NCBI GenBank assembly: GCA_050084985.1
Contig: JBITNC010000001.1
Location: 2,232,001 to 2,296,000, forward strand
DNA length: 64,000 nucleotides
DNA from: Nageia nagi
Lineage: Eukaryota > Plantae > Pinophyta
Direction of reading: 5' to 3'
Shown: piece by piece, positions 1-29,145 of the stretch
Layout: the number at the start of each line of letters is the position of its first letter
How positions within the stretch are numbered: position 1 is the stretch's first letter
Translations under genes and position numbers: made by a program
The notes under the pieces: generated by a model
Database searches by the model: none
What the model was told of the DNA's origin: nothing
The model's input: the letters and a program-made list of their open reading frames with translations, nothing else

Positions 1-2020
1 ATATGGGAGCCATCTCAAAGTGTACAAGTCTATAATGCAAACTATGAATTCTTAAACAATCATATACTTCTTGCGATACTTCTAAAAATGTTCAAGCACT
101 CTTTTGTCCACCTTAAGCAAGATTTACAAAATGCACCAAGTATTCAAGACAGCATAAGATAGTAACAACCATTCACATTAATAGTTCCAAAATGAGAGCA
201 TTCACTATTCAATTGCTTGGAATATATCACATTCACAAATTGAGAGAACTTGCAAGCTTGAAAGTATTAGGTAATTTATCCAATTTGCAAAATGTCTAAT
301 CCCTTACAAATGAGCCCAAATGGGCTATACATAGTTTCTTTGGCAATCCTAGATGTTGCCCTAACCCTAATTCCAAAATACGAGAAAATACACATTGTTC
401 AATCACAGATTGCCACATGGCATTACAAAGTTTCTTCCAAACTCATGGGAGCAAATCCTCATCCATCACGAGTTTGGGAATTGAATAATAAATATAATAA
501 TAAAGTTTTTCATCAAAATAAACATCATGTTCTTGAAAATAAAAATAAACTTGCAAATTTTGACTAAGATGACGGTGGGCCCAAAGCCATAACTTGTCCC
601 TCGAAATCCTCATCCAAGAATTTCATTGAGTTCCAATCCACGCAACATCTCTGACATCTTCGGCCCATTCTCAGCAACACAACATCCAACTTCTGCAATT
701 AGACTATGGATCTCAATGGAAGTAGTCATGATGCTCAAGTAGATGATGGGATTCTCCATGAGTGATGCATGGGTCTTCTAGGGATAAGGCCCCCCAACGT
801 TGTTTGTCTTGTCCCCTAATTCTTTGTGCAATCCCTAAGATAAAATGGGACGGATTCCAAACTCAAAAACTAGTCTTCTTCAATTTTGGCGCAAGTGTAG
901 AAAAGGAATGCAATTTGTATTTGAGAAAATGAGGTCTTCAAGCTTGAATTTATGGCTGGATTTGGTCTCCAAGAAAACCCCAGTCGGCTAGGTCAAAGGG
1001 GGAAAACGCATCTTAGCCATCCAACTAGCCGATCTTGGGATGTGTGTCTGCATCAAATTTCATGTTGAGTTGGGCAAGACCAAATGTGGGGGTTCCAAGG
1101 CACCTTCAAGCTTGGCGCATGCCTAGAAAAGACAAGATTTTGTCTTTCTGGATCATACGCCAGCCTTGGGGATGAATGCTCTTTCCAAGTTGGCTTTCCT
1201 TGATCCTTGCTCGTTCAACTTGACCCTGAAGCTCTTCCTAAGACATGTTCTTGCCTGATTTTTGCTCTTTCTGGGGTCTAGGCTCGTCAATTTTGATCTT
1301 TAAGCTCGACTTGGACACTCCCCAAGCTTGGCGCATGGTTCAAAAAGTAACGTTTTTGTCTTTTGGAATCATGAGCCAGTCTCTCCAGCCTTTCCAATTT
1401 GAGCGCATGATTCAAAAAGACAAGATTTTGTCTTTCTGAGGCATGCGCCAGGTTGTAGATGGCCAAATTTGTCTTTTTGTGAGTTCCTACTTCTGTGCCT
1501 TAGCCAAATTTTCATGATTTTCTCCTCCTAAAGGCTTCGTGGGTCTAGTGCACGATTTAAAAAGTCAAGATCCTATTTTTTGAAATCATGCGCTAGCCCT
1601 TCTGGAGTTGTTGGAGCTGATCTTGGGGTTCGGGCTTCATGCCTTGGCCAAATTTTGTCTTTCGGGTGAATTGGAAGCCTTTCTAGGTTGGGCGTATGGT
1701 TCAAGAAGGCAAGATTTTATCTTTTTGAGGCATGCATCAGCCTCCTGGATGCTTGGGTTTGACTTCATCATTCTCGAACTTGTTCTGTTCTTCCTCCCAG
1801 CTTGATTGTATGGTTCAAAAAGACAAGATTTTGTCTTTTGAAATCATGTGCTAGCCTTGAAATGCCTTCTACTTGTCTTTTCCGAGCTTGATTTTGATCT
1901 AGTCTGCTCCTTGCCCTTGGCGCATGCTCAAAAAGACAAGATTTTGTCTTTTACCAATCGCATGATTCAAAAAGACAACATTTTGTCTTTTGAAATCATG
2001 CGCTAGCCCTAGGAGTAGCC
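1..2020 (-). mobile_element. Fragment of a short-type LTR-like unit (paralog of 2232-5347), no intact terminus visible
   Basis: Collinear similarity with ~2760-5100. Examples: cccttacaaatgagcccaaatgggctata at 301 vs cccctacaaatgaatccaaatggggtata at ~3065; tttggtctccaagaaa at 961 vs ~3940; same palindrome array. Confidence 0.7.
1114..2004. repeat. Array of ~8 imperfect 48-bp palindromes GGCGCATG-N4-AAAAGACAAGATTTTGTCTTTT-N4-CATGCGCC with variable spacers
   Basis: Units at ~1114, 1330, 1402, 1547, 1691, 1805, 1919 (truncated) and 1958. Confidence 0.9.
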
Positions 2021-2044
2021 TAGGTTGACTTGATTCTTTCCCGA

Positions 2045-2231
2045 CTCGCCCTGGATCCCATCCAGACTTTAGCCTCCATTGCCTTCATTAGTAAGGAGGA
2101 CTTATCAAAGGAACTTATCCACACTTGTGGATTGTTTAATGCCACTATGATGCCATTTGCGGTACCTTTTCTTGATTTGAGCAATGAGGTCGCCAGGAGA
2201 TGTGAATAGGACAATAGAGTTCTACGGGACA
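2045..2231 (+). pseudogene. N-terminal fragment of the large unit-encoded ORF (probably copy A)
   Basis: Translates to DPIQTLASIAFISKEDLSKELIHTCGLFNATMMPFAVPF..., matching ORF 35727 (DPIMALASTTSLSKEDLSAELIHTCFLFNAAIIPFAVPF). Cut by a TGTTGG terminus at 2232. Confidence 0.85.
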
Positions 2232-3343
2232 TGTTGGGGTGTTTTTCTTTCCTACCCTGGAGTAGTGAGAAGAATGCCAACACCTCAGGTGAAGGGACAG
2301 TACCCCTCCTGCAATGGGGACTGGTTACCCCAAAGGTTAGCTCCTTAACTTGGTGAGGATAACTCAGGGAACGATTGAGATGTTTGAAGCTGCCACCAAC
2401 ATGAATATCATGTGTGGATTCAAGGACTTGAATCGTCTGCTGAAAGGGAAATAAGGGGTGCAAAAATTGTGAAAAAAAGTGTAAAATAAAATAAAAGAAA
2501 AAGTGGTGGAAAGACTGTGGGTAGTGAGATGCAACTTAGGCATGCGTACTCATGGGCTTGGGATAAGTTCCTCAAAAGCCGACTTGTTGGGTCTCGATTT
2601 AGGTTCCACGCACCCTTAATCCGTTCCACTAGCCAACATCATGAATGGTCTAGTGGAAGGAGCGTGAAGTTGTGGCAAGGATGGAATAGGATGGGATGAA
2701 GGCAACACACAACGATCCGGGTGAAGTTCCTACTGTGAACAACGTCAACAAGACATCTTGAGGTATCCAAGCCTAAGATTGCAAATGACAAAATATCACT
2801 AACAAGATGCTAATCAACCACTTCATAATATATACAAGCCTTCTTTTGTCCAACTAGAATTTACAAGATGCACCAAGTGATTAAAACCAACACAAAGTAG
2901 TGATAGAACAAACTAGACAACATTGTCAATCATTCATTCATATTTAGCATTACAACATGAGAAGCATATCATCACAATTGCACTAACATACACCACATTT
3001 AACAACTTAAACAATTTTGGTCTAGCAAGCAAAAGTTCCTTTCAATTGTTAAAAGTGTCAACTCCCCCTACAAATGAATCCAAATGGGGTATAAATAGTT
3101 TTAGGAGCAACCAACAGTGTTGCCCTAACCCTAATCATGAGTTTTGAGAAAATAAGATGCGGTCCAATATAAATATGCCACATGGCATCATAAGATTTAT
3201 TCTAGCACTTGTGGGAGCAAATCCTCATGTCACAAGGCTGTACAAATTTTAATAAGTCTTTGAGATCCAATTTTGAAATAAAATTGCAATAAAATAAAGA
3301 TAATTGTTGCGCTTGCAACATCATGCCTCGGTGGTTCTCTGGT

Positions 3344-3862
3344 CTATTCCTGTTGATCCACCTTCTCTGTCTTTGCAACGTCGAGCTTGAGGACTCCATT
3401 GCTAGCTTGTTGAAGGTACCCTTGTCCGCCTATGGCTAGCTGGTCTTGAAGAAGATCTGGGTTGGAAGGTGTGTTCTCTCCTTCTAGGCTCAGCTTCCCT
3501 TGCCCCTCTTCCAGCTCCTTGGTTAGCTTGGTGATATCTTTGATCCGCTCTGGTCCAGTAGTCTTGACTTCATCAGTTTCAGTCTTTATGGTACGGGCCT
3601 CCAAGTCTTGCGGCTTCTCCAAGTCTTTGTTCAAGGCAACTTTGGTGACAAAAAGTGTATTGTTCACCTTGAACACAAATCTACTCACATAGTGAGTGTC
3701 TGTAGATTCGTCTCTTGCTCTTAGGATGGGATCCTCGTGCAATGATCTTGTTAAGGCTGTGATGTCAACATTGTGCTTCTGTCTTGGAGAGGCATTTCTA
3801 GTGGTCATGCCTTTCCTTGTCTTGCCTTGTTGCTTTGGTGCTTCGGGGTTTGGTTCAGCCAT
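3344..3862 (-). CDS. Uninterrupted 172-aa ORF of unknown function (MAEPNPEAPKQQGKTRK...) inside the short unit
   Basis: Open frame with ATG ~65 nt downstream of a CCTATAAA box, in the position the large ORF occupies in long units. No recognisable homology. Confidence 0.5.
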   Translation of the reverse strand: MAEPNPEAPKQQGKTRKGMTTRNASPRQKHNVDITALTRSLHEDPILRARDESTDTHYVSRFVFKVNNTLFVTKVALNKDLEKPQDLEARTIKTETDEVKTTGPERIKDITKLTKELEEGQGKLSLEGENTPSNPDLLQDQLAIGGQGYLQQASNGVLKLDVAKTEKVDQQE

Positions 3863-3926
3863 TCTGGTGCACAAGATGAGGAGCAAGATAATATGAGTTT
3901 GAGAAAATGAGCTTCGTAGGATGGTG

Positions 3927-3934
3927 TTTATAGG
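3927..3934 (-). promoter_or_regulatory. TATA box (CCTATAAA) upstream of the 172-aa ORF
   Basis: tttatagg on +, followed on - by a pyrimidine-rich leader (ctcattttctcaaactc). Confidence 0.55.
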
Positions 3935-4087
3935 CAAATTTTGGTCTCCAAGAAACCCTAGTCAGATAGGCATGAGAGGAATTGATCTTGACCATCCAGA
4001 TGGCCAACTTCGAGATGTGTTCATGCTCAAACTTCCATGCCTTACTGTTGGAGACCAAACGTAGGGGTTTGAGGCTCTTCCAGGGCT

Positions 4088-5052
4088 AGCGCATGCCCAA
4101 AAAAGACAAGATTTTGTCTTTTTGGAGCATGCGCTCAACTTGAGGATGCATGCTCTTCGTCCATTGTTTTCCTGTGCTCCCCATGCATCCATCTCGACTC
4201 TTCATGCTCAAGATGAAACCTGAACTTGTCCATTTTGCCTTTTCTAGTGTTCTAGCTTATCGATTTTGCCCAACGAATTGACTCAGAGGCTCCTCTAAGC
4301 CTGGCGCATGATTTGAAAAGACAAGATTGTCTTTTTGAAACGCGCTCCAAACTCTCCAGCTCTTCCAGTCTGGGTGCATGGTCCAGAAAGGTAGGATTTT
4401 GTCTTCCTGAGGCATGCGCTCGGTTGGAGGTGGCCAGATTTGCTTCGCTTTGGTCTTCTACTCTTGGGGCTTAGCCAAAATTTCAAGTTCATTCCGTCCT
4501 GGATGTCTTCCCAAGCTTACGCATGCTCAAAAAGGTCAAGAATTTGTCATTTTGAGGCATGCGCCAGCTCCTCTAGTCATGTTGGAGCGGGATCCAAGCT
4601 TCAAGACTTCATGCCTTAGCCAATTTTTCTGTTTTGTCTCAATTGGATGCCTTCGTGGGCTTGGCGCATACTTCCAAAAGACAAGATTTTGTCTTTTTGA
4701 GGCATGTGCCAGCCCCCTGGGTGAGAGCACTTTGGTCTTCCGGGTCTCAAGTCCATCCTAGTGGCCTCCTGATTTGGGCGCATGCTCCCAAAAGACAAAA
4801 ATTTGTCTTTTTGAGGCATGCGCCACCCTTGAAATGCACTAAGTTACTATTTTCAGGCCTTCATTTTGTCCTGGGCATCCTTCTAGGCCTAGCGCATGCC
4901 CCAGAAAGACAAGATTTTGTCTTTGGGGGAGCATGCGTTGGGTCCAGGAGTGACCAAGTTTGCTCTTTGGACATGAACTCCAAATCGGGCGTCTTCCTGA
5001 CTCGAGCGCATGTCCCAGAAAGACAAAATCTTGTCTTCTTGGAGCATGCGCC
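4088..5052. repeat. Array of 8 imperfect 48-bp palindromes with variable spacers
   Basis: Units at ~4088, 4303, 4373, 4518, 4663, 4777, 4891 and 5005. The last has an inverted centre (ACAAAATCTTGT instead of ACAAGATTTTGT). Confidence 0.92.
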
Positions 5053-5347
5053 AGGCCTAGGAGTGGCCCAGACTCACTTTGCTTGGTTCTGACTTGACAC
5101 AAGTTTCCCAGTTTTACCTAAACTCGACTTATATTCCCAGACTTAGCCATTTTCGAGGGTTTTAACTCTTCAACACGACATGACTACGATTGGGCTGTTT
5201 GGACACTTGGGTGATGGGTTGATAGGCGTGATTTTGAGTTCGGTCGGAGATAGGGAGAGGATGTGTTGACTAGGTGCCAGACGAATGTAAGTTGCAGAGG
5301 GTCCCCAAAATTGCGAAATTTTGGGGTGCGTTGTGTAAGGCACAACA

Positions 5348-8070
5348 TTAGCTAAATCAAAACAACAACAACAGAAGACACAAGCTAAAACAAAAGAACA
5401 ACAACACAACGGAGTGAGGACGACTCAACGTAAGACGAAGTGATGATGAATGACAAACATGGTGACATAACAAGCTACAACTAACCTAGATGGGCGGATA
5501 CACAGTGACTTGCGTCGTCAATAGGGAGCGAACTTGTGTCAGCATCATCACTCACAATTGCATCGCCGATTTCATTATAGTGAGTGAACTCTCACTGGCT
5601 ATTTGAGTAGCCATCGGGACACCTGCATTGAAGTCTAGGTTCGAGGACATTGGATTCATTTGAAGTGTCTGCTCCAACTGTAGTCTCCGGAGAAAAGGAC
5701 AACCCGTCCTTGAGCTCGGTAGCCCTATTCAAGTGTTCTTGATGGTTTCTCCTGAAGTTCATATTTTTTTTTTAGGTTTGTGTGAGAAGACATGCAACAC
5801 ACTATTTACATTATAGTACAACCTCAAGGGACTTCAGGTGTCATGGATACCTGGATCAAAAACGTTCTTTTGTTCTCCACTTAAAGGAATGAACTCTATG
5901 TTGTGATCCTCATGTAACATGCCTCTAGGAAGAATGAGTGATTGTAGTGGAGGTCTTGCACATGCCTATGAGAATACTGCACAAATCCCAGGGACAACAA
6001 TCTTTGTGAACGTCTTTTGCATGGAATGATACAGGCCATTGATAAGAACAAGCAAGAGACTTTCTTTCATGGGCACCTCACAACATGGGGTATCATTTGT
6101 TACTCGTGCTGCAAGTATACCGACTTTGTTTGTGACAACCATGTGATCCTGACTCTCAACATCGGCAACCTCCTTGCTATCAAAAGATGGAAAGCATGCA
6201 CACCTAGGCATCATGATAGGAGGAACATATGGCCTATGCCCCTTTGAATCCAAATCAAAGTCTTCTATCACCAATCCAGGCCACTTCAACGTACATTCTG
6301 CCTCTCTCTCCATTGTTTTGCTAAGGCCATTGAAGGTACCGCTAGTTTCTGCAACTTCTTGGACCACTTCATGTACCAATCCTTGTGTATGGATCGCAAA
6401 AGCAACATCAACCTCTTAAGATGGAGATTCTTGCCTTTCATGAAATAAGGGGTCTTCAATATCATCAAACACTGATCCACGAAACTCATCTTTAGCAAGG
6501 TCAGGTTCCAATTGGACATCATCTTCATTCTTTAGCAACAATGTATAACTTTCAAGGAATTCATCAATATCCCTTACTTGCTCATCCTTTCGATGTGACC
6601 AATCACATGTCTTACCATACAAAGCTTCTTCCAGTTCCTTCAATACTGAATCTGGACATATCTCAGTTGGAAGTTCTTGTTCGATTATTGTGGTATCTTC
6701 GTCTAGAAGTGGCAGCAAGAATTCATCGATTACAACCTCTGGTTCTTGGTAATTCCACTGGGGAGTCATCTTGCACTCAAGTTCCTCATCAGTACTATCT
6801 TCTTCCCATCTCTCTTTGCTCGATTGATCACTTGGGAAAAGATCAGTAATGAAATCCTCCACAAAGATCTTCTCATGCAATGATTCCACATGATTGTAAT
6901 CTATTTCAGAGAAGCTATCTTCCTCCAAGTGTGGCCTTTTGTCTTGACATGGGTAGTAGTGTGCCTCACCCCGGTGGAATTGCTTGAAGTTTTTTGGGCT
7001 CAAACTCTGGAAACAACTCTGTTGAAGATGCCCATTCAACCTTAGTGATACTTTTATCTTCATGTGAGGCCCATAATTTGTCGGCTCTTAACACTTTGCT
7101 CTCCCACAACAGGTAGTTCGAAGAGTGGGCTCTCAGCACTCACCTTGGTATCCTTTTCAAACACTGGGTTATCCATGGATCGATGGCTATTTTTATGCTC
7201 CAACTAGCGAATCAACTCATGATCAACTTCATCATTAACACTGCTTTCTTCCCACATCTCTGTGCTTGATTGGTCTCCTGAAGCAAGATGAGTCGTGGAA
7301 TTATCTGCAAGGGTTTCCTCATGTAAGGATTCCATGGAGTCATGATCCATATTGGAAGAATTATCATTTTGTGTGTCTGACTCCTTGTCTCCATTTTCCT
7401 CTGTCTTCATCTCTAGAGAGGGTAGGGTATTCATTTTCTTTGAAGACATGTGCCCATTCTTTGCCACATATAATGGAGACAATACCAGGTAGATATAACA
7501 ACCATATGTCTGCAAAATACAAAGATGGCGAACCTTTAGGACATAGGGATTTCCCTCAAAACACCCATTATTTGACATTGGTCGTTAAGCCATGTACGGT
7601 CTTCCTTATCCAAGGCCATTGGGACAAATCCCGCTTCTTTACAAGCTTTATATGTCATGACATTGAACTCCATTTTGGAACTTACCATGCAATTGGTAAA
7701 CTCTCTATCTCTAAGGCACACAGATGCCATGAATTTATGCTCCTGGTTTCTTGGTGAATTCCTCCTTCCAACTTTGGATCAAGTGATTCCTCTGATTTTG
7801 ACGCAATGGGTGAGGATTCATCATTAAAATTGTCACCCTCTAGTGAACTGGTCTCATTACCTTGTTCTTCGTGAATGTGGCTTTTCTTCCTTCCTGTTTG
7901 GTCTGATTGATCGTCAAGGAAAGATTCAAAGGCAAAATTTGGATCTGGTATATCTTCGTAAGTGGATTCTGTTGCCTCTTGGTCTCCTCTGTGAGAGTGG
8001 TCACTGATATCTTCTTCACTATCTTCTTCCCTACTCCCCGATGATTCAACAAGTGGTATATCTTCGTAAG
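5348..8070 (-). mobile_element. Decayed retroelement-like internal region with acidic ORF fragments and a degenerate retropepsin-like segment
   Basis: Co-oriented minus ORFs 5966-6379, 6416-7063, 7204-7578, 7536-7730 and 7682-~8070. NCMVSSKMEFNVMTYKACKEAG resembles gypsy protease NCxxDSGAxxNxM without the DSG. Confidence 0.45.
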
Positions 8071-8074
8071 TGTA

Positions 8075-9431
8075 CATGCAGATTTCTTCCTGCAGGATGC
8101 TGACCATACATTCATCAGAGTCTATGGCTCGAAAGAGCAACCCCTACCACTACCGAGATACGCTAGTGATAGGCTTATCCTCATGGAGTTTGCCAGACAA
8201 CTTTGTTCTTGAAACAGAAAGTCTGGAAGAAGAACACGACCATTAACTTGCCTATCGTAATTGCAAGATATGTGTGTCAGATGTGGGTTGAAGCGATCAA
8301 TATGAAGAAGGAGATGCGACAGTATGTCTTCTTCAGGGAGGCAGGAAAAAGGAACTATGATCCTAGAGGTGTAATTGCACATTTCCACAACATTTGCGTT
8401 TCCCAAGCCTATTGCTTTTCAGCATAAGTCCTTGGGGAGTGTGGAGAAGTATTGAAATGTGCAAGATGAGGAGATTACAAAGATAGATGCTCTCCTGAGC
8501 AAGAAGAAGGCTCCCCTCCAAGTAGAAAAACCACCTCAGAAACCTCGAACTACTAAGTCTAAATCTAAAGTGGTCCCACTCAATATCAAATCATCCCCTC
8601 GTCTTGTTCTTGTTGCACCTCTGCCAGTTAAGGCACCCTTGCTTCTCGTTGGAAAGAGGAAAGAACCTCTAAGGGAGCATATTCCAGGCCCTAGCAAGCG
8701 CAACGTAGAAATGACTAATCTCAAGGATGTTGGCTATCGCGTTATCCCCACGGATGTACTGGATGAGGCTTGTACCAGTGATTCGCCGACAAAAGCGGTC
8801 CCTTTCAGACTCGTGTTCTCCTGGATGTAGGGAGAAAGTCCCCTCGTTGCAACCAAGTTCTAGTTTCAGTTTCGAACACTCCACTTCCTCTTTCGACGAA
8901 GAGACTGATGAAGAGCTTGGCCGTACAGCAGAAGAGTCCGGAGAAGAGTCAGAGAGCCATAGGGAAATAGAAGAAGAAGAGGAAGATGATGATGGTAATG
9001 TTGACGAGCAGTTCCCTGAGCAAGAAGATGTAGCTATAGGTGCCTCTGCACCTGATGAAACAGAGATTGAGAATCTCCAAGAAGATGATGAGATTGTGGA
9101 TGTTGGGACCTATGATGATGATGAGGTCCAAGTTGTCGGAGTAAAGTGTGCTAGAGAGGTGGGTGCCTCCAAACCCTCTCCTGCTGAGCATAGGAAAAGG
9201 TACCCTTCTTCATAGAAACCCTCTAAAAAGAGAACTAGCCATGAAAGGTCCCCCTAGCCATGGAACAAAGGCATATCTATAGGTAGTGATAGAGGAGATG
9301 AAGGAAAGACTGAAGAACAAAAAAAGATGAGAAGACATGAAGAGCACCAGGGTAAGGAGATTAGCCTTGTTCAAACTACTCTGGTGAAAGAGGTCAAGAA
9401 AATCAATAAGGGACGTTTGTTGGTACAGAGG
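8075..9431 (+). pseudogene. Large ORF copy A, middle part (interrupted at 9431)
   Basis: HADFFLQDADHTFIRVYGSKEQPLPLPRYASDRLILMEFARQL followed by basic and acidic low-complexity tracts. Matches 41117-42440 and 33117-34520. Confidence 0.9.
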
Positions 9432-10504
9432 TGTTGGGATGCTTTTCTTTCTCACGTGGGACACTTTGATTATCATGGGCGGAACTTATGAGATCCCAAG
9501 CAACATAGTTGGGAATGCGTTACCAATTCCCCCAGTTGAAAAGGACTGTGTATCTCCAAGGCTCTTGTTGAAACACCTTGCCAACGACCTCAATGTCGTG
9601 ACGTTGTAAGGTTTGTTCCTCCGGTGTGTTTTCTGAATAGGGATAGATATAGAAATAAAGTGCGGTATCCCTCTTTGGAATCAGCCTCGATGGAATGGAA
9701 TGAGAGGTATATAGTCTGTTAACCAACGATATTTTATTCTTTGATGTATAGAGTTTGTTCGGAACTTTTGTGTGTGGACTTAGCGATCATATTTGGTATG
9801 AAAACATAAAGAAAGCGTAAAGGTAATACTGTAAAGAGGTGAAGGAAAACACCTTGGAGAAAGAAAGAATACTTGGTCAGATATGAGGTTGAGGTTCACT
9901 AAGGGGAAAGTGTCTAAGAGTTAATCTCTTTCGGATCGGTTAAGGACTCTTCATCCACTTCATCCAACCTTGCAAGCAAACAACTTCACGTTCGAAATGC
10001 TTCAAAGAGGAGCGGGGAGGAACGCCAATTGTCGGTTCTCTACGAATAGGACCAATTCAATTGAATGGAAATGGAAGGTCTCAAAGTGAATGGATCATGG
10101 TTTTGGATGAAGGACCTAACAAGATGTCGTAGAAGTAGAAACTGACATAGAATACCCAATCGACTTGCATGCTAAGGGCCAAGCAACAAACATAGGTAGG
10201 CTTCAAGCACTTTTTAATGTTTTTTAGAGATAACTTCCCTAAAGCTCAAGAGCTTTCAAAGAAATAAAACGAAAAGTACACAAACCCACTATGAGTGCCC
10301 TCAAAGAATCAATCCATAACATCAATATGAAAAGTGTCAAACTCAAGTCTTCGCATTAACCACTCTGTATTTTCTTTGTAAAAGAGTTACATAAAAGTTT
10401 TCACAATTTTTCCCTTTTTTCGAAAAATTTGAACTTGTTCTCAAGATTTTCATTCCTTGAAAAGTTCCAAACTTTCAATCTACATAAAAGTGACCCCATG
10501 GGGT

Positions 10505-10514
10505 CTATTTATAG
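10505..10514 (-). promoter_or_regulatory. Distal LTR-type TATA box (CTATAAATAG) ~1.07 kb from the unit end
   Basis: Positional equivalents CTATTTATAC at 18915 and 43982 on +, and ~3090 on -. Confidence 0.6.
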
Positions 10515-10677
10515 AATTTCTAGGGTTTCCAAGTGTTGCCCTAATTCTATAAAACAAATTAAAATATTACATAGTTGCCTACTACGACTAAGTCAGCTAA
10601 CTTTTTGGTGCTCTACTTGCAAGGCTAACTGATCATGAGAGCAGGGTTAGTCGAGTTTTGGTGCTCAACTTTCCCAG

Positions 10678-13600
10678 CTAACTGATGTACCAAATTTTCA
10701 AAATTTTCGAAAGTGACAAGATATATAATGGCTGATTTGCGGTTTGCACATGTGATGCGATGGTGGCCTCGAAGTCCATGCCCATGAAAATGTTTTTGTT
10801 CTTGACTCCGGTGTTGAGGATCTCCATTATCCCTTCATTTGCCAACAGATATGCGATGATGGTCTTTGAAGTCTTCTTCATTTCTTTGCACCACATTGCC
10901 ATATTGCTACCATATTTGAGCTGTTTACCAGATTTGAGGACATTAATATCTTCAGTTTCGAGGTAAGTGTTGATAATCAGCTGGACCTCATTTATTACTG
11001 TGGAATAGTCCCTGCTGCGTCCATCTTCCTCGATCAGCCTTAGATCAAATTGGTATTCTGCTAGCTATTTCTTCATGTTTGCTTTGAAATTTGTCTGAAC
11101 TTGGATGAAATCCTGACACTTTGAAACAACGTAGAACAACCAATCATACTGGTAAAAGAATTGATGACAGTACTCCAGTATTATTGGCGTGCCGACAGCT
11201 TTTCTTCTTAGCTTATGCATCACCTGATAACTATTGCCCCACCTGGCAAGAACTTCACGGATCTTGTCTTGAGCGACAAACGATCCATTGTCTTTAATAA
11301 AGAAATTAGTTATTCCTAGGAATAACTCTTGGATAGCCTCTTTGGTCTCGTTAATCCACTCTTGTTTGACCGCTTGAATCCCAGTATTCAACGAGATCTG
11401 CTTCCTGATGTCTTCAATTGTTAGGTTAGCAGCTTGGATATCAACGGTCAACTTCCTCTTTTGAGCCAATTCTCTTTTCAGCTCCCTGAGCTCCACCTTC
11501 TGTGATGTGTTCTTCTCTGTCAGCGTTGCAACATTAGAAACTATAGCATGTTGCCTGCCCAGTGTTCCGATTGCTTTACATCGCTCTTCTCGTGTTTCCA
11601 CCACTAATGCAAATTCTCCATCAACATTCCTTTCCCTTCCTACAGCAACAGTATCTGTGATGATGGAATCATCCTTCATCGAGATGTAAGTGGCTACATG
11701 CTCAAGTTCATTCTCTGATTCTTGATCGATTTGAAGATCGGCATGGGCTTCAGATGGATGATATGCTCTTATGTTTTTTAAGAGCGTTGCCATGTCGAAA
11801 TTGTAACTTTGCCCAGGATTGGCAACTATAGTCACTTGTCTCTCTGGATTCCCTTGATGTTCTTCCTCTCTCCTTTTCTTCCTCTGATCTTCATCTTCAT
11901 TGTCGTCCTCTTCATTTCCTCCATCCCCTCCTGATGAGGAAGCTTTTCCCTTGGATGCCGAGGTCCTTCTTGAAGCAAGTGTTGGAGGTTTTCTCTAAGA
12001 TGGAGGTGTCTTCTTTGGTTGTCAATGTATGGAAGCCCGTGTAGACGTAGGTCTTGTTGCTTGAACGGTTTCTTCCATGGTAGGAGGACTTATGGCTGGT
12101 ATCTCTTCGACTGATGAATCTGTTTCATTGCCTGAGATGTAAGGTATTTCAGATATCTGGCCATCTTTTAAGGGTTCTCTCAAGAGGTCTCCTTCCTCAA
12201 TCTCATATTCATGCTTGTTGTCACTGAAGGGAGAAGCAGGAGAACTAGGGCGAGAATAATATAATTGTCCATCTCGGGATGGACCTTTGGGATGGACTTC
12301 CACAAACTTTTTCAAGCGTTTGTATGCGTGCAAAGTGCTTCTAGTCTCTTTGTCACTTCTTATTGTTGCGATAATCCCTGTATGGTTTGATCAATAGTTT
12401 GCATTGGTTGAACAATGAGTGTGGCATATTGATTAGATTGCCCCCATGTCAATGTCATTGAAGGTGAAATTGGTGGTGGTTCACACGGAATCGAGGGATT
12501 CTTTTTAAGGATTATCGAAGGATGTATCTTGGCTACCTGATTTGCTCGATGTCATCTATATTTCTGTACCTTTCGAGCTTTTCTAGGGACTTGTGAGGGT
12601 AATCGGTTTGCTAGGTTTTCTTGTAGAATGCATCGATTATAGCTTCAAGATCATAGTACTCTACCGCATGTTCTACTGTAAAGCCGTAATATGCTAGCTC
12701 CATCTTCATCGTCTTGACTTGACTCCATGATGTGCATTCGTACTCCCCTATGCGGATAGGTAATTTGCATGTGGTGGCACCTTTCTTGCACCAAATTTTC
12801 TCGTGTAAGTACGATAAGTGTGTGCAAAATTCCATCAGGATGAATCGATCACTTGCATAACAAGGAAGTTTGTAAGGTGGCTCAATTGACCCGTAAACCC
12901 TAATATATGTGGCATCTATTTCTTCGAGATAAAAATCTGCATGTCCTCGAAGAACTTGGATTGCTGCTTGTGATATCTTGGTCATATTGACGGTCCCCTT
13001 TACCTTTGCATATATATGACACTCCAATCCTTCATTCATCATTTTGAATTCGTCCCACCAGTTTTCCAACATGAATCTAGGGTAACTTCGCCATACTGGC
13101 ATTTCTGGGTCAAAGAGGTACTTGGTATCTACTATGGCGGATTTTCTGTTCTTGCCATGTAGAAGCAGGAATACCAAGTAAGAGCTCATGTAGAATCTCT
13201 TTGTTTCTACGATTCTGGACAACTATTGAGCTAAGCAGTCACTGATCACCTTACTCCATCTAATCCCTTTGCCTCTGTTGATCTGATGTATGAAGCCCAC
13301 GAGCTTCTTTTTGAATCTTTTATCATTTTCTCGTCCTGTGATCCTGCACAGCATAGTGATAATGGTCGAGACTGTAGGATAGAAGTCTATTCTGTTGGGT
13401 TGACTCAAGGCCTTTGCCTTGTAATCTTTGCACTCTTCAACTAGCCAGTCTCTTATCAAATTCCCCGGCCTGGTCAATTTGTTATAGAATCTGACGGACT
13501 TTTTCATGGAGAATATGATGCCTTCGTTATTCCATGCAAATGGGCTTTCTATTCATTCCAATGTGCAAACTAGTATCTTTGTGCCTTCATTGTCGAGGAG

Positions 13601-13921
13601 GACTCTCTCCTTTGTGTCGCAATATCTTGCTACCTCGAGTCACAGTTTTGGGAATGGAGCGGTAAAAGGGATCAAAGAAGCTTCAATGATCATGCATTGA
13701 GCAAGTGTATCATTGAACAATCGTTCGTGTGGGATCTTGGCCATCTTCTCTAATATTTTGATGGGGTTAGTATTTGCCCAATTTGTGTCCCTAATTTGAC
13801 CAAGCCCATCTACTAGCGCAGCTATAGGGAAGAGAGCCTTCCCTTGTTTTTCCAGGGTGATCAGGCTAGTCTTCACGAGCTTTTCCATTTGGAGCTCTTT
13901 GTTTTTCTTATCAATGCTCAT
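10678..13921 (-). pseudogene. Large ORF copy E (~1,080 codons, several stops/frameshifts), divergent subfamily
   Basis: Consecutive minus ORFs 13640-13921, 13223-13507, 12611-13222, 12022-12333, 11065-11835 and 10678-10902. Shared motifs IPFTAPFP, IRWSKVISDCL, KRFYMSSYLVFLLLH, HADFYL, YIRVYGS, ASDRFILMEF. Confidence 0.88.
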
Positions 13922-14653
13922 GAGTCAAACCTGTGGAGTACAACAAGGTGTTAGGATTGGCATTGGGTATCTTTGGAGCAAAAAAGAGATAGTCAAATTT
14001 TTGGCTTATTTTTAGTTTTTTTTAGAAGCTAAGTGTGGATTTTCGAGAATTTTGAAGTTCGTCAAAAGTGGGAAACAAGTACATGGGGTGTTGGCAAATA
14101 AATCTAGGAGGCTTGTGGCTAAGTCTCGTAGAAAAATTTCAAGTTTTCGGGGTTCGAATTAACTCACTATTTTTTTAGCCCATGTATTTGTTTTTTTGAC
14201 AGGTTTTTACAGCTTCGAAGCTCGGAAAGATGGGGATGCAAAGTGGGTTTTCAAGCTTCATTCGGGGAAGTGAATGATGAAGGCTGCTCTTCTATATGGG
14301 ATCTATCACTTTGGTATAAACTTCGAAGTTTGGATCATTCAAAATTTTGGAGTTTTTTGGCCTTGAAAAAGTGTTTTGTGTTTTTTCACTTTTTTTCAAA
14401 AAACTTGAAAATGGCCAAAAGATTTGGGGGTGGTACGAAATTTTGAAAATTTTTAAAAAGTGGATTTGACCTAATGGGTGGATAGAGGATGAAATTCTAA
14501 GATCCTTGGAAAATTTTGACAATGTTTTGGCTTATTTTGGATCTTGTGAGCAATTTTAAAGTTTTTGAGCAATTTTGTGAGGATTTTGCTCAAAAATGGA
14601 TGCACAGAGGCTTAAGGAGAATGTTTGTGGAGCAAATGAGAGGCTTAGGGGGG

Positions 14654-14663
14654 TATTTATAGG
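14654..14663 (-). promoter_or_regulatory. Proximal TATA box (CCTATAAATA) upstream of ORF E
   Basis: tatttatagg on +. Equivalent AAACCTATAAATA at ~35239 upstream of ORF C. Confidence 0.6.
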
Positions 14664-14777
14664 TTTTTTGTGCCTTTTGCATGCTCCTTAGTGGGCTTTT
14701 GACCTAAAAAGTACTCTAGGGGTGCATTTTGCATAGTTTTTAAGTTTTTGGAGTCTTTAAACACTCCATAGGCTTGC

Positions 14778-16075
14778 AAACCTGCACCTAGCTTTTTGAG
14801 GCACTTCCTTGGGTCAAAATGGAAAAATTCAAAGTTTAAATGTGATTCAAATCACTTCCTTCACCCATCTATGTGCCCAAAATCGAATTTTGATGACTTT
14901 TGGGGCTTTCTCCTTGCATCTAGGTGCCAATTTTCACTTTTTTGGGTTCTCCAATGGCTTGGAAACCTGTGCCTAACTTTTTTCAGCATTTCTAGTGCTC
15001 AATTTCGAAAATTTGTAAGTTTAAACAAGCTTGGAATGCCCTTTTCCATGCAACCATGTAAAAAAATTTGAATTTTTGCAAAATTTTCACTCCTGTTCAT
15101 GCTAGACGCTGATTTTCACTTCATTGGTTTTAGAAAAATCAACAAACCTGTGCTTAGGATTTTGGGCCACTTCCCTTGCTCAAATTTGGAAATTGCAAGT
15201 TTAAATGTGCTAAAAATCATGTTTTCCTTGCACTTGACCGTTGAAAATTGGATTTTTGAGGCAATTTTTGAAAAACTCTTGTTCCTAGGTGCTAGATTTC
15301 ACTTCATTGGATTTCCAATGGCATGAAAACCTGTGCCTAGCCTTTAAGTGCCTTTCCATTTCTCAAAATTCAAATTTTGTAGTTCTAAATGTGCTCAAAA
15401 TGGGGTTTTCCATGCAATTGACACCTTGGGATCAAATTTTAGTACATTTTTCGCTTATCCCTTCAAGTTAAGCGCCATTTTTCATCCCGATGGAATTAGA
15501 AACATTGCAAACCTGCGCCTAGCCTTTGGAGGGTCAAAACTTGCCCATTTTCAAAATTTTCAAGACTTAAATGTGCTAGAAATCACATTTTACACCTTGT
15601 AGACCCCTCAAAGTTGAATTTTGACCAAAATTTATCAAATTCTTTGATCCTAGGCGCCATTGTTTACATCATTGGATTTCCATAGCTCTCAAAACTTGCG
15701 TCTAGCCTTTAAGATGGCCAAATGTGCTCAAAATCGAAAATTTTGAGACCTAAATGTGTTTGCAATCATGTTTTCCTTGGTCCCAAGCACTTAAACTTAA
15801 TTTTTGATCAAAAATGATTCTATCTTGTCAATCTCGGTGCCATTTTTCACTTCAATGGTTTTGGAAACATCTAGAAACTTGCGCCTAGCATTTTGGGGGT
15901 CTTTACTTGCTCAAAATCAAAAGTTTTGAGGCCTAATGTGGCTTAGAACCATCTTTCCACTCATTCATGCATTTGGATTTCATTGTTGATGCATTTCCAC
16001 TTTTTATTTACTATCTAGGTGCCAAAATGTATCTCTTGGGATTTCCCATAGGCTTGAAAAACTGCGCCTAACCTT
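14778..16075 (-). repeat. Diverged tandem array with ~183-bp period
   Basis: AAAC(C/T)TG(C/T)GCCTA anchor at ~14781, 14966, 15147, 15330, 15512, 15695, 15878 and 16061. Confidence 0.9.
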
Positions 16076-17371
16076 ACAGTGCCTTAGACTTGGTCAAAAT
16101 AAAAAATTTTGGGTCTTAACTATGGTAGAATTCACCTTGTTTCTCCGAATACAGTCTTAGACTTGAATTCCGATACCAATTGTATTTATCAATAAGAAAC
16201 TTGCACCATTTTTCCCTCATTTGGGTTTTGAATACCTTGGGAAAATGTGCTTGGGGCCAAGGCTATTCAAACTTGCGTTTTCGAACTATTCCAGACTCAA
16301 TCTGTGCACTTTTGGCCACTCTTGGCGTTTTCGAGCTCAAACTCTATCAAAACACCTTTTCTGGCACCTTCGAGCTCAAACTCTACATTTTCAATGATTT
16401 TCGAGCTCAAACGGTGCAAAAAACGACCATTTCCTGGCTAAATGTTGTCATTTTCCATCATTTCCGGGTTCAAAGTATTCAATTCTGCCCATTTTTGGCA
16501 TTTTCGGCCCTTGGTGTGAAAAAAAAACTTTTTCGGCATTTTCAGCATTTTTTACCATTTCTGGCCATTTTGGGCTCAATTTGTCATTTTCAGGTTCAAA
16601 GAATTCAATTCCGCCCATTTTTGGCATTTTCGGGCTCTTCGTGTGAAAAAAAGACCTTTTTCGGCATTTTCTGCATTTTTCAGCATTTTTGGCCATTCTA
16701 GGCTCAATTCGTCATTTTTGGTCATTTATGAGCTTTCCGAACTCAAATCGTGCAAAACGCACCTTTTTTACCATACTAACCATTTCTGGGCCCAAAAGTG
16801 ACCAAAATGCGTTTTTCTACCTTACTTGCCCTTGTCCAGCTTTGCAGGGTCAACTTTGACAAAAATGTCCATTTTTGTCATCCTTGTCATTTTCAAGCCA
16901 CTCGAACTCAAAAGTGACAAAAACGTTCATTTTTACTACCTAGGTACCTTTGCGCTTAAATTTTGCAAAAAACGCACCTTTTGTGATGCTAGGCATCAAT
17001 GAGCTCAATTGCTGAAAAAACGCTCTTTTTTGTCAACTCTGCCAGTCTTGCACTCAAATGCTATGAAAATGCGTCTTTTTACGCTTTGTTGGTTGCTTGG
17101 TGAAAAACTCCTCTCTTGGTCGTTGCTGTGATCCAAAACTGCATCCTGCTTGATGTTGCTTGAAACAGGACCATGAATGGCCCTTGGACACATTGAACTG
17201 ACTTGGTGCCTCTATGGGTATTTGTGTGCATTGCTTCATCACTTGGCCGCTTTGACTCTTTTCTCTAGCTATCATATAGTCACCTACAGGCAATGTCGTC
17301 CATTGCCTTCAAAAAAATAGGGTCCCCAAAATGCTGCATCTTGGGGTGTGTTGTGTGGGCACAACAAGAGG

Positions 17372-18510
17372 CTTCCTCCCCAATCAGCAACTGAGCATCC
17401 AAATTTTGACTTGGATGTCTACCTTAGAACCCTCATCATGACTACGGCTCATGACGAAGACATAGACCAGGATCTTCACTCTGAAGATGAGGAAGAGGAG
17501 CTTTCGGATGGTGAAAAGATTCAAAGGTTTGATACATTTGTTTCCACCTTCCGAAAGGAAATCTCCATCAGCCATTGCTATTCAATGGAGAAACATCCTC
17601 AGAGAGAATGATTGTATCATTGAGACATTTAAGATGCTCATGAAACTAGGATTGATAGCTTGCAAGCATATAGTCACTTAGAATGCTGCAGTCATGGAGT
17701 AGGAGGGCTACGAAGCCAAAAAGGAGGTGAAGATGCTGAAAAGGGAACTCACGGCCAGCATGAAGATCATCAAGGAGTTCCAGAAGATCAGCACCACCCC
17801 TAGATCTAAAGAAGCAGACCTTCTTCCATGAGGGATGGGAATTGATGAAGGAGCAACTGAGGAAAGAAATGATGGAGGCTATTAAGAGATTGTCTTTTCA
17901 AATCTATAAGCTCCTTGCTGTAGGTGTGGAAATCAGGGACCTTAAGACACAAATCTCCACATACCTCAGTACGTTGAATAGCTATCTTCCCAACATCTCC
18001 CATCTATAGCACGTTTACGCTGACAATCTCGAGAAGTTAGTCTACTGCCACGAGTTCATCTACCATCACGATTGGCTGAATCATGCACTCAAGAAGTGCA
18101 ACATAGTCCTGAAGCTTAGAATCCCCTTGAGAAAGGAGGTCGAGGAACAGATGAGCAACTATGCGTATCAACTCAAGTTCCAAGGGGAGGACAACAATGT
18201 AAGGAAGAAGGATGTGGTATTGGCAGAGGCTCAGAACTTGATATAGGAGCATCTAGACATCGATGATGACATCTTTTTTCTGAAGGCACGGCATCCTATC
18301 GTCCACGAAAGATGGATGTTCATTTGGAGACACTAGATGCAAGCTACATCCAAGAAAATAGAGGACTACATTCGACAGAATGGTAGCACCATTGGCACGA
18401 TTTCCAGGGGCATGTAGAAGACTGTGGCCTTCTAGGAGGAGACCATTGAGTCGTACGGTCTCACCAAATGGAACTTCGGCGACACTAGAACAAATCTGGC
18501 CTAGATCTGA
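17372..18510 (+). pseudogene. Large ORF copy A, C-terminal part
   Basis: DLDVYLRTLIMTTAHDEDIDQDL...EGYEAKKEVK...YCHEFIYHHDWLNHAL, matching 42470-43587 and 52010-53145. Confidence 0.9.
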
Positions 18511-21119
18511 TTCGCTTGTAGAATCTCTCTGCGATAATCTTTCTATTGTTTAATGCATGTTTTATGATGGTTGTTGTCATGTCAGACTTTATTTACTTGA
18601 TTTGACTGGTGTAGGGATGAGTTTTTGCTCCTGCCAGATCAAATTTGTCAGACTCATTTATGACTTTGATTGGTGCAGGGATGAGGTTTTTCTTCCGTCG
18701 GTTCAAATGTCAGACTTTTATTGCATATCTAATTTCCTTTTGAGTAGTTTAGAAGTTGATTAAATGCATTTTGGTAGTGGCATTTATATTTTGTCAGTTT
18801 TTAAGCGCCACTTGCATCGTTTCATGTGAACTATTAGATTTTGTATTGGTATGTGTGTTGCGTGTGTGCACACCATATTAGATTTGATGCCCTTAGGGCA
18901 TCACTTCTGGTGGTCTATTTATACTCCATCATGGCCATTTAGAAGGGGATTTTACACATTATGGGATATTTGCATATGTGAGACTCTGCACATAATAGAA
19001 ATATTGCATATTGAGGGTCTTGCATTTTGGGATGCTGGTTACAAGCTTTTACATGTGTAAGAATTTATGAGTTTGTTGCATCTGTTATAATTGAGGTTTT
19101 CTACATTTTTATGAGTGTAACTAGGCTTTCTACATATGTTTGGGTTGTTGCATCGTAAAGCTTTTACATTTTATTGCATAGAGGTTCGCCACATAAGGGG
19201 TTCAATGCATGTTTATCATTGAATATCATTATGAATGTATTTCTTTATGGAATGAGATCATAAAGTTAATTAATATTGTGAAGAGTATCATTTGTGGGAT
19301 CGTGCATGTTTGAATAGTTTTCCTCTTGGAGTTGCATATTGAATATTTATTGAAGTGGTTTAAGCCGTTCTTTGCATGGTTTGCATGTAAGTGGATGTAT
19401 TCTGAAGCTCATAGCTTGTCTTTATATCATTCGGTTAGGTCCTTGTACTCACGGCCTCACCTCATTTATTCCTTCCCACTGAGTCTTCCACCAAGACCCA
19501 ACAACTTCTTGCTTTCGTCTAGTAGTGATTTGAGCACATATTGCTATTTGTTGCCCGATTTGATAGTGAGTACATTTACCTTAATGAATCTGGAGATGAC
19601 TTGTCGAGACACTGTTGTGATGATCCAAATTTAATTTCAACCATATACTAGCAGTTCTGGACCATCAAACCTTGACTTCGGGTCTAGGGCATCAACATAC
19701 AATCAAACAAACCCTCAAGTGCCAACGTTAGCGTTAGGACAATGAATACACATCATAATAATGGAAACATGCCAACTTCTAGCTCATACAATTGATTAGC
19801 AATGAACATCACATCACAATGCCAACGTCTGGTTCATACATGTACAATGAAGCAAAGACAATCCAATGCATGCACAAGTATGGAATACGCAACACAATAA
19901 TGAGATCCAATGCCCTTTGGCTGTATACAATAGATATGAATAGCATTAATACAATACCAAGCCCTAAGGGGCAGTCGTTGGCCTCCAAGGAGCCAACCAG
20001 GTCATAACAACAAGTATCTCCAATACCGGACGAACTACGAAACCATGGGATAGATCTACCCCCTCAGATCTTGAATCCTCTCCACTGAAGTAGCCCTCCT
20101 TGAACTCTGGCTGATCGACTGAATGGTAGAAGTAAACCTTCGAAATGCCACCGGATGGGCAAAGATGCTCCACCAATGCCGTAGATAATCAGGATCCCAA
20201 TGCGTGACTACCCCTCTAGACGCTTCGTCTAGGAATGGTTGCTTAGCATCACTAAGACTTGTGTCCAAAGGACTGTAGTAGAAGTGTAATAATAATCAAT
20301 TGGGTCCACTAATGAAGCTCCAATGGCTATTTATACATTACTTATGTCCAGATCTCACCTAGGAGTCATCCTAGGCCCATCTAATCCAACGTTGGGCATT
20401 TGGGGGGCCCAATCACTTAAAGTGCCAACGTGGGGGTCATGATCACTTAAGTTGCCAACGTGGGGTCCCTAGCACTTAAAGTGCCAACGTGGGGGTCCTG
20501 GAGTCCTCATGAGCCAACATGGGGGTGTGGGGCCCTCCCTAGTGTGGCGCTTGCATGCTGGTCGTTGTCCATCACTCTAATGCATAAACAGACCTTGGGA
20601 TTCCCACAATCCGTGATCTCTAATACAATACATGCCTAATCTATTGCTTAGGAGGGAGATGTCCCACTTGGGGCTCATAGTGGGGTCCACTTGACCCATT
20701 AAGTCTCCTATCCTAAGTTACAACAATGTAAATGCAAATACATCAAATAGATATAGTACAAGATGACCAAACTGGTCCCACTAAGAGTACAAAAGGGATA
20801 TCACAACTGCATCACTGGTGATACCTTCATAAGTTTATCTTTTTTTGTATTCCTTTGCACTTATCCCTGTGTTTGTCCTTGCATTTGTGATCTTTCTTCA
20901 CTTTCATTCACATTTGCAGTCTTCCGCATCGTGGCAAAGAACTCAGCATTGTATTTCCCTTGTATACGGTTAACAACATGCATCTCTGACTACTGTGCCT
21001 TAAATACCATATTCCATGTAAGCGTTTGGGGTAACCAGTCCTTTCAGGTGAAGACAAGTAACGCTGTTTCTTCCAAGTCTTGTGCATGTTTTGGACTAGG
21101 AAAGAAAAATATACCAACA
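18511..21119 (+). mobile_element. 3' non-coding part and terminus of unit A
   Basis: Collinear with 43588-44947. Ends GGAAAGAAAAATATACCAACA. Confidence 0.88.
19616..20805 (-). mobile_element. Solo LTR (1,190 bp), related to the LTRs at 46910 and 49049
   Basis: TGTGAT...ATCACA termini, TSD ACTGT/ACTGC, and an empty site visible at ~44630. Shares ggcctccaaggagccaac and ttgaatcctctccac with the 46910/49049 LTRs. Confidence 0.88.
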
Positions 21120-22670: not shown

Positions 22671-23422
22671 CTAAAAATAGGCAGGCAAGTGTTACTTCCA
22701 TGAGAACATGACCAGTTAACTGCATACATTTTTGTTCAATAACTAAGAGGAGATGATGGTAATGGAAAGAAATGGCAATGACCTATGATAGCATTAAATT
22801 TAACCTCTGCAATGATAGATAAAGATAGATCATCAAGCAATTAAAGTAAATGATCTACAATTTAAAGCTGCAGAAACTTGAAAAAAAAAAATTTATGGGC
22901 ATGCTTTTTGCTGATTTACTTTGTATATACACAAAGTAGACAAATCTGCATAGAAACTCTCCAAACTACAACTAGCATTAATGACTTAGAAAAGGCCTAT
23001 GGCATTGATCTTCTGAAGTATCTTTAGATTGTAACATTCTGTTTAATATGTATTTTATATTGCACTTTAACTTAGTTTTATTCCTGTTTTCTTGTATATT
23101 ACAGCACCCATCTTAGTGATTTGTCTCCACTTGCTTTTTTTTTGAGTCCCATTGACCTATGGTCATTCATGGACATTAATAAATTTCTTTCATTCTTTTT
23201 AATATCTGACTGAATTATATATCAAGATTTGTTCTAGTGACAAGATATAGTTTCAATTATCTTGTTTTTGTTTGCTTTCCTTTGCAATGTTATTAGGTAA
23301 CGTTTAATTTTTTCATTTTCAGATGTAAATTTTCTCCTTTTTAAGCTTTTGTTATAGAATTGAGTTTTAGTCTCATGAGTGTCTTCTTGTTAAAGAATTT
23401 GAAATGTTTCTGTCCATACCAG

Positions 23423-24118
23423 GATGATGCACTGCCTAGATACAGTTCTTTGCAGCTGCCTAGTCCTCTTGTAAGCAAGTCTTCTAGGTATGAACGATCC
23501 CCATCACTCACACCACCAGAAGCTTGGGGAGGAGATCCACCAACTGAAAGATTCGGCCCAAAGAACAAGTTATCAAGATTTGCTCCCTCTGCACACCTGG
23601 ATACCGATGAACTTTTATCTGGCTTGGTCTCTTCTCGTTTACAGGATTTATCCTCATCCAGTGTTTCTGCCACTCTTTGTTTTCCTGCAAAAAGTAGTCC
23701 TAATGTCAGTTCTGCTAAAGTTGTAGATGCTGATTTTTCAAGATCAGGCAATTCCTCTGTCATTTCAGAACCTTTAACTACACATAATATGAATAATATC
23801 ACAAGTTTCCTGGGATCAAAGGTCGTCGCAGGACAATTAAATGCTGATATGTCCGGGTTAGCATTGCCAGGGTTATCAAGGAAATACATGGAGTACACTG
23901 AAAGAAGAGCAAGTAATAGTTTATCTAGAGATTTTTCATTTGCAGGTGATGGGGCATTATTGAATGCTGAATCACCTAGAGAAAAGAAAATTGGTCTTGA
24001 GAAGGAAGAACAAAGTGGTGCTGCCAGTGAATTGAATGAGAAAAGGTTCTCTGAAAACAATTCATTCTTAAGAGCAGATACTTCAGTGCCTCCATTATCT
24101 TCTTCTTTGCCTGCCAAT
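23423..24118 (+). CDS. NEDD1: NEDD1/GCP-WD (gamma-tubulin ring complex targeting factor), large Ser-rich internal exon
   Basis: cag|GAT...AAT|gtaagt, 696 nt, phase 0-0. Contains the plant NEDD1 motif LTPPEAWGG and is in frame with the exon at 55151. Confidence 0.82.
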
Positions 24119-24989
24119 GTAAGTGTCTGTCTCTTCATTTTCTAAAAATATGTTATATATGGTGCATGACAAACCTGGGACTCTGTTAAGAACTAGTACT
24201 GCAGATTGATTGCAGTAGGAAATGTGTTGAGGCATAATATACATCCTAGTTTATAAATGCATGTAAATACTAACACCTTCATTTGGTTGATTTTTACAAA
24301 TTTGCTTTCCATACAACCATAGTGTTCATATACAAATCTATTCTGTGATGTCGAAGAATTATAAAGTTTTTCCATGATTGTCTGCAGATTGCTTTTACAA
24401 ATCTGATTACTGATTTGGTTTCCAATATTGCTAATCTACAGATCTGTGGAGATTTAACAGTCTCTTTTATAAAGTAATTTGTAACAGAACTGTCAGTCAG
24501 GAGATAATATTTGAAAGTTCCCATAATAAATCTTAAAATTTGGTCAAACTTAGATGCAACTCCTTTGATAATGGTTTATAAGGATTGGCCAAATATTCAT
24601 GAGAATATGAATGTGTAGCCATAAAGTATTTTACTTGTTTCATGGTCACAATATGAAACATTTTTCCTGCTTATGTTGGCATCCTCGTGTCATTCTCTGG
24701 TGGGCTGGTCATGGTAAAGATTCCCTTAGCATTTTGCATATGTTATAGGGGGGTTGCAGGACCAGTCTGGATATGCATGTAAAATTGCTAAAATTTGATG
24801 TTTGTGCATAGATAAATAAAATAACCTGCATTTTCTTCTTCACAAGATCTGATAAACAGGAAACTAAGAAGAGGAGTTGAGGCCTTGAAAATTTGAAATA
24901 ATGTTGTCAATAATTTTGCCATTCCATTTAAATGAGGAAAAAATTGTTAGAACAGCCCAAGAGCTGAACAATTTTCTGAACACAATTCC

Positions 24990-28400: not shown

Positions 28401-28669
28401 ATGCCATCCAATTAGACCTTTCATTCGAAACGAAGTTTGTGGGTGCACTTGATCTACGCTAAGTTCATTTGATTGTTTATTGGTACCACTTAGGAGTATC
28501 GACAATCAGCGTTGCTCTTTGCTCCTCTTGAAAATAACTTGTATATAGGTCATTTATTTTCAAGTTGGAAGACTTTAAATAAAACTTCTTAACTAATTCG
28601 AAAAGTAAAAAATCTCATACAATGCTTCATTGTGATGTTTCCTTTGTAATCTAACAAAGTATTGCATCA
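25500..28669 (+). mobile_element. LTR-like sequence with an E-type ~183-bp array but no large ORF; boundaries approximate
   Basis: TAGG(C/T)GC anchors at ~26322, 26506, 26689, 26871, 27054, 27237 and 27421 resemble the reverse complement of the E array. Possible ...GCATCA end at 28669; no TSD found. Confidence 0.55.
25723..26259. mobile_element. hAT-type MITE (537 bp)
   Basis: Imperfect TIRs CCTGGTTCGAAAATCCG / CCGAGTTTTCCAACCTTG, 8-bp TSD GTTGCAGA/GTTTCAGA, and subterminal CGAGT/TACTCG repeats. Confidence 0.8.
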
Positions 28670-29145
28670 TTCTCAACTTTTATTTTCTTTATTTTTCTCT
28701 TTCTTTAAAATTTAAAACAACATTCAAACTTCACATATAAACACCCTAAGTTTCCTAAAAAAACACGTGAGTTAACAACTATTACCTCTATTACACCACT
28801 GATTTGATTCTTGAACAAGAGTTACTACAAATCAAGCGATTTTCTTTTTACGAATCTGAAACCTTGGGGTCTCAATCCTTACAAGTCAGGATAGGTAATG
28901 CTATCTCACCTAAATGCTGGGTTGTGTTTCCATTCGATCACCTCCGGTGATGCCTTGTATAAGAGGAATGAATTCCTTCCCAACACCACCACCTCCCCTA
29001 GTCATCCCCACCATCCTCAACCCTCCCCACACTCCCATTCTATTGGATCCAGTGCATGCCCACCTTTACAATAGTATCCTAAAACAGAAGTTACTTGGCT
29101 TACACTCTCTTTCTTCTATGGATGATCAGGCACTCTTTTTAGCGG

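Follow-up and report, generated by a model that had tools for sequence, protein, structure and literature searches.

The window analysed here is a stretch of 64,000 nucleotides from the gymnosperm Nageia nagi (assembly GCA_050084985.1, contig JBITNC010000001.1, positions 2,232,001 to 2,296,000 of the forward strand). It holds at 9432-17366 a unit of 7,935 bp, which is an integrase-type insertion with TG...CA ends and a 5-bp target-site duplication. The unit carries on its minus strand a large, broken open reading frame (ORF) and, ahead of it, an array of tandem repeats. The termini (TGTTG at 9432, CAACA at 17366), the perfect duplication (AGAGG on both sides) and the clean interruption of another copy's ORF had been claimed in an earlier sequence-only reading, and each was recovered. 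The flanks (8072-9430 and 17367-18975) can be aligned, in the same order, to a relative at 41117-44039 that lacks the interruption, and the host reading frame runs on across the insertion site, matching that relative. A contig joint from 9430 to 17375 that omits the unit is present in three of the four public runs, and sequence cover falls off steeply past 17366. The host is itself a related unit, whose downstream segment (17367-21119) holds a further insertion at ~19616-20805.

Internal layout of the unit

On the minus strand, the unit consists of a head, repeat arrays, a first TATAAATA, a leader, the ORF, a second TATAAATA and a tail, an arrangement already proposed and now given coordinates (Table 1). 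The head opens with a small hairpin, TGTTGTG-4 nt-CACAACA (17366-17349). TATA box 1 is the likely promoter of the ORF. An intron is predicted from the sequence in the 5' leader upstream of the ATG, with its acceptor kept in 3/3 copies and its donor side unplaced. TATA-like word 2 occupies the same place in related units, lying on the opposite strand in three of them; hence, it fails to fix the orientation of the unit. Only the final ~115 nt of the tail are common to distant subfamilies, and this stretch, a possible cis element, is found at 9432-9550, 21005-21119, 44833-44947, 29146-29260, 2232-2350 and 45915-46028.

Pfam was scanned at E ≤ 0.005 with 80 stop-free pieces of at least 45 residues overlapping the unit and 70 pieces of at least 88 residues elsewhere in the window. 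None of the 80 matched, while the same scan detected gag at 38.6-39.4 and 47.8-48.1 kb and reverse transcriptase (RT) at 57.8-58.5 kb; no RT or integrase of the long terminal repeat (LTR) type was found among the 150 pieces. An Rfam search of the unit gave no match. Between the duplications no internal domain, primer-binding site (PBS), polypurine tract (PPT) or second LTR was found, in agreement with the sequence-only reading. Hidden short LTR pairs, which that reading had named as evidence against itself, were not seen: the best local score of head against tail was 23 (shuffled maximum 24), and the array and leader scored 36 against the tail (shuffled 32 and 26) over at most 44 nt. The unit has no terminal inverted repeat of at least 25 nt.

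Table 1. Features of the unit and of its insertion site (positions in the window; L001, L002 and L003 are family sequences discussed in the text)
Feature	Position	Strand	Remark
Whole unit	9432..17366	- (strand of its ORF)	7,935 bp, TG...CA
Target-site duplication, left copy	9427..9431		AGAGG, 5 bp
Target-site duplication, right copy	17367..17371		AGAGG, 5 bp
Host, upstream portion of related unit's ORF	8071..9431	+	truncated at 8071
Host, remaining ORF and tail	17367..21119	+	ends CCAACA (family terminus) at 21119
Head terminus	17313..17366	-	common to other subfamilies; loose contig ends at 17313 in 3 runs
Degenerate repeats	16285..16990		include 128-bp tandem pair
Array	14760..16232		about eight 183-bp units, each with two inverted GCGCCTAR copies ~48 bp apart
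TATA box 1 (TATAAATA)	14654..14661	-	kept in L001 and L003
Branch-point-like word and AG acceptor	13931..13954	-	9 nt ahead of ATG; kept in L001 and L002
ORF, pseudogene copy	10678..13921	-	~1,080 codons
Conserved N-terminal domain	12539..13921	-	461 codons
Acidic serine/proline-rich linker	11725..12351	-	weakly constrained, dN/dS 0.64
Predicted coiled coil opening C-terminal part	11383..11547	-	crude heptad score
TATA-like word 2 (TATAAATA)	10506..10513	-	
Tail	9432..10505	-	1.07 kb

The reading frame, its family and the repeat words

The unit had been credited with its own gene of ~1,100 amino acids in a ~3.2-kb ORF. A frame of about that size is present, but it is broken by seven in-frame stops and two frameshifts (near 12540 and 12360), and its longest stop-free stretch is 309 codons. 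The family ORF is under purifying selection. When all 1.84 billion representatives were scanned, 186 relatives were found at E ≤ 0.001, nearly all of which match the first 480 residues; among them is an unbroken protein of 1,010 amino acids with the same plan of domain, linker and coiled coil. An uninterrupted copy, which the sequence-only reading had proposed to look for, was thus found in a relative but not in the unit. None of the ten relatives looked up bears an informative name.

The ORF is an integral part of a high-copy family. All 30 bins of the unit are covered in 4/4 public runs, most contigs being 90-95% alike; the runs that hold the family include several air metagenomes, and the closest clusters in the Atlas belong to Streptophyta. 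Over its 5.7 kb, L001 follows the unit colinearly (76-86% identity), and the host unit and the copy at 41-45 kb show the same order of ORF, tail and terminus. Five further ORF copies lie in the window, with 24-46% identity (2054, 8075/17803, 32266, 35808-43545 and 50030). A unit at ~26250-28920 (+) has no ORF and retains the word GYRCCTAR in eight copies, which makes it a candidate target in trans. Another unit of 3.1 kb, at 2232-5347 (-), has both family termini and its own word array and lacks a duplication; it is possibly a recombinant of two insertions, and a short different ORF in it (3347-3961) had no Pfam match.

VANC proteins are anti-silencing factors with tandem target motifs, known from the VANDAL (Mutator-like) transposons of Arabidopsis (PMC5735166). 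In a structure model of an 83%-identical relative, residues 40-313 gave a borderline fold match to VANC21, and VANC (PDB 9lnk) is 9% identical to the family domain. The N-terminal domain is predicted to adopt the PMD/DUF1985/VANC fold, and quite likely does; the protein would then probably be an outlying member of a fold already known from the extra ORFs of Tat elements. In the Pfam search for PMD (PF10536) and DUF1985 (PF09331), 0/144 family members were above the cut-off; the positive control, P0169, reached E 2e-31 for PMD.

The array words are candidate binding sites. L001 has 18 copies of GYRCCTAR, where 0.47 would be expected and no shuffle gave more than 3, in inverted pairs with a spacing of 48-49 bp that recur every 183 bp. 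Across the window the word occurs 28 times against 7.0 expected, with 11 copies in the non-coding part of the unit and eight in the ORF-less unit. Different words are found in other subfamilies: AAAGACAAA in units of the stretch 1000-5300 (14/14), AGCATGTSC at 29400-31600 (5/6) and ATGYGACYA at 34650-35770 (6/10), all confined to non-coding arrays. Conservation in the eight L001 units is 0.92 for the words and 0.56 for the remainder, the words having been picked after inspection and one of them used as anchor. The CG within the word is intact at 15/16 sites in L001, which is possibly a blend of copies, and at 7/14 in the unit, the remainder being CA or TG; methylation-driven decay would yield the same change. 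Words in tandem arrays fit the pattern of VANC targets (PMC5735166), and short, subfamily-specific words in the element's own non-coding tandem repeats were found here with words chosen post hoc.

Solo LTR or stand-alone element

A giant solo LTR and a unit mobilised in trans had been offered as alternatives. The integrase-type ends and the lack of gag and pol on which both were built stand; neither is proved, and the former is favoured on mechanism only. The unit is probably a giant solo LTR, left between the duplications by recombination within a two-LTR element, because no other established route leads to a single TG...CA unit that has a perfect duplication and lacks PBS, PPT and inverted repeats. 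TG...CA ends with a duplication of 4-6 bp are expected of a solo LTR, and the unit has them.

Thirteen family termini were listed (six heads and seven tails; ten in the window and three in L002 and L003), of which 11 remain without the unit's own two. A PBS or PPT stands beside 0/11 of these, a small set of old, non-independent termini grouped in a single nest. The chance of this outcome, with termini that are non-independent, is ~0.001 at the ratio found in Picea, 1 solo per 5.6 complete elements (PMC5751070), and ~0.08 at that of Cupressus, 2.8 solos per element (bioRxiv 10.64898/2026.07.23.736688). Pairs of units around gag-pol, a check suggested in the sequence-only reading, were found neither in the window nor in the public contigs, the latter being too short or chimeric. 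Hence, the family is either strongly solo-biased or was never paired. A solo bias of long LTRs is reported for angiosperms and not for spruce (PMC5751070). None of the 11 has TGG within 5 nt after the tail end. Two sites come close. At 29345 the flank has 12/15 purines; it shares homology with the tail of another unit and is hence a target site, and the head there could be that of a more distant type of LTR. At L003:1660 a TGG stands at offset 5, in reverse orientation and within another LTR.

It is unlikely, though these results fit it, that the unit is a stand-alone, non-autonomous element which was never part of a two-LTR element and is moved in trans by an integrase-like enzyme reading its short ends. 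The flanks of all 11 other termini differ from one another, loose-end agreement at 17366 is 0.4, and none of the 150 scanned pieces holds an LTR-type RT or integrase. The sequence common to distant subfamilies is limited to ~55 nt of one terminus and ~115 nt of the opposite one, versions without an ORF or with a short one occur, and DNA transposons are known to carry VANC-fold genes. However, every known route to both TG/CA ends requires PBS, PPT and a repeated R region, the unit has no terminal inverted repeat, and the sampled termini are a few old ones from one nest. Mutator-like elements, moreover, make duplications longer than 5 bp, which also counts against a stand-alone origin.

A possible chromatin role and known systems

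The best explanation of the whole, to which somewhat less than an even chance is given, is a solo giant LTR of a Tat/Ogre-like retrotransposon with a broken gene, the product of which would regulate chromatin of its own family in a sequence-specific way. On this view, a complete element bounded by two LTRs of this kind would have integrated, and recombination between them would have left one. The ORF would have been transcribed from TATA box 1 with a leader intron, and its protein, oligomerised via the coiled coil, would have bound the paired array words and kept the LTR promoters unsilenced, also in trans on ORF-less copies that retain the word. After the death of the unit's copy, the words would have decayed by CG-to-TG/CA change. 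That an oligomer binds the paired words and relieves silencing in cis and trans is, as a step of its own, a tentative proposal. More doubtful is the wider one, in which a gymnosperm-type retrotransposon lineage would have built a VANC-like anti-silencing module (gene and target-word array) into a giant LTR or stand-alone unit, solo remnants keeping both factor and address label and de-silencing the family in trans, with protein and words co-evolving between subfamilies.

The unit might instead be a solo LTR whose protein had another role, as an accessory of the particle, of RNA or of integration, the array being an ordinary expansion of an LTR enhancer. The fold match is borderline and a shared fold shows no function; the PMD proteins MAIN and MAIL1 were first described as silencing factors (PMC5418596), and the PMD ORFs of retrotransposons have no assigned function. 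This reading is nevertheless quite improbable, as the words are subfamily-specific, confined to non-coding arrays, set in spaced inverted pairs and contain CG, as would be expected of co-evolving sites.

Sequence-specific anti-silencing has so far been shown for the VANDAL DNA transposons of dicots. If a related fold and matching word arrays occur in an abundant family of retrotransposon type, anti-silencing of this sort would extend to the elements that fill giant plant genomes, and a direct test would be offered by the protein-word pairs readable in every subfamily. Standard LTR finders would miss or misname a gene-bearing LTR of 8 kb, and estimates of solo-to-intact ratios would be distorted; such LTRs could account for part of the large unclassified repeat fraction, which in Cryptomeria is 18.4% ('Unknown'). 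The family may already be present in existing repeat libraries or supplements.

MuDR-type elements make duplications of about 9 bp, and a VANDAL/Mutator-like identity was rejected for the unit (duplication of 5 bp, no transposase match). Ginger/Polinton-type DNA elements have terminal inverted repeats and their own retroviral integrase; the unit has no such repeat of at least 25 nt and no integrase match, and was not assigned to them. Genes located within an LTR are exemplified by MMTV sag and HIV nef; the gene of the unit, if the latter is an LTR, is much larger, has a plant host and comes with its own promoter and array. The likeness to VANC is a predicted one, and the unit differs from VANDAL in its TG...CA ends, 5-bp duplication, missing transposase and lack of a Pfam DUF1985 match, and VANC has been described as dicot-specific.

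Tat extra ORFs (PMD, PMD-coiled coil and TRP28 in TatIII, Ogre and Retand; PMC4408406, PMC6317226, PMC11963269) resemble the unit in their large accessory frame with N-terminal globular domain, linker and coiled coil, in adjoining tandem arrays and in integrase-type ends. Those with PMD or PMD and coiled coil were found first in gymnosperm TatIII (PMC4408406, PMC5418596, PMC11963269). However, they lie internally, between LTR and gag or between pol and LTR, whereas the ORF of the unit lies between outer termini, with no LTR pair and no Pfam family match. It is very unlikely that the unit is a rearranged derivative of a TatIII/Ogre-like element which kept the outer ends and the region of an ordinary, internal extra ORF: the plus-strand order of antisense ORF, promoter and tandem arrays equals that of the Retand/TatIII region from pol to the 3' LTR (PMC11963269, PMC4408406) and PMD with coiled coil is a known extra-ORF architecture, but the unit has no LTR pair, PBS or PPT inside, its layout is family-wide and its depth is continuous.

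LTRs of plant non-chromoviruses reach up to ~5 kb (PMC6317226), compared with 7.9 kb for the protein-encoding unit. By description, the unit is similar to solo LTRs of non-chromoviruses with long LTRs and to the pine elements PtOzark (two 13.4-kb repeats) and PtPiedmont (7.3 kb, no domain hits) in its single TG...CA unit with duplication and its kilobase arrays; PtPiedmont has 1-kb LTR pairs (PMC3762812), which the unit has not. Its layout is not described in the accessible sections of PMC13477047, PMC11539532 and PMC12859917, and, among the open-access papers listed, searches gave nothing pertinent on a gene within a plant LTR or on a VANC-like factor in a retrotransposon.

The window holds other elements as well. 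A young LTR element with gag and protease only (36328-40686, -; 1,231-bp LTRs 98% identical, tRNA-Met PBS at 39470, duplication AGTGG, no RT) sits in a family ORF, and a second gag-only element (46912-49900, -; LTR parts 92% identical, PBS near 49050) sits in the head of the family unit beginning at 46619. A Ty3 remnant at 44948-45914 (-), with a PBS at 45661, gag and probably a ~250-bp LTR, sits in a unit's tail and was itself struck by another unit. A broken plant mobile domain ORF (PF10536, E 2e-31) is found at 63177-63851 (+), and an RT remnant at 57800-58509 (+) was judged by translation to be of LINE (long interspersed nuclear element) type. The stretch 23341-24145 can be read without a stop for 266 codons in both directions, with no Pfam match. 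A long, acidic, broken reading frame at 5348-8070 (-), likewise with no Pfam match, ends in words which we take to resemble those ahead of Ty3 RT and the 3' LTR.
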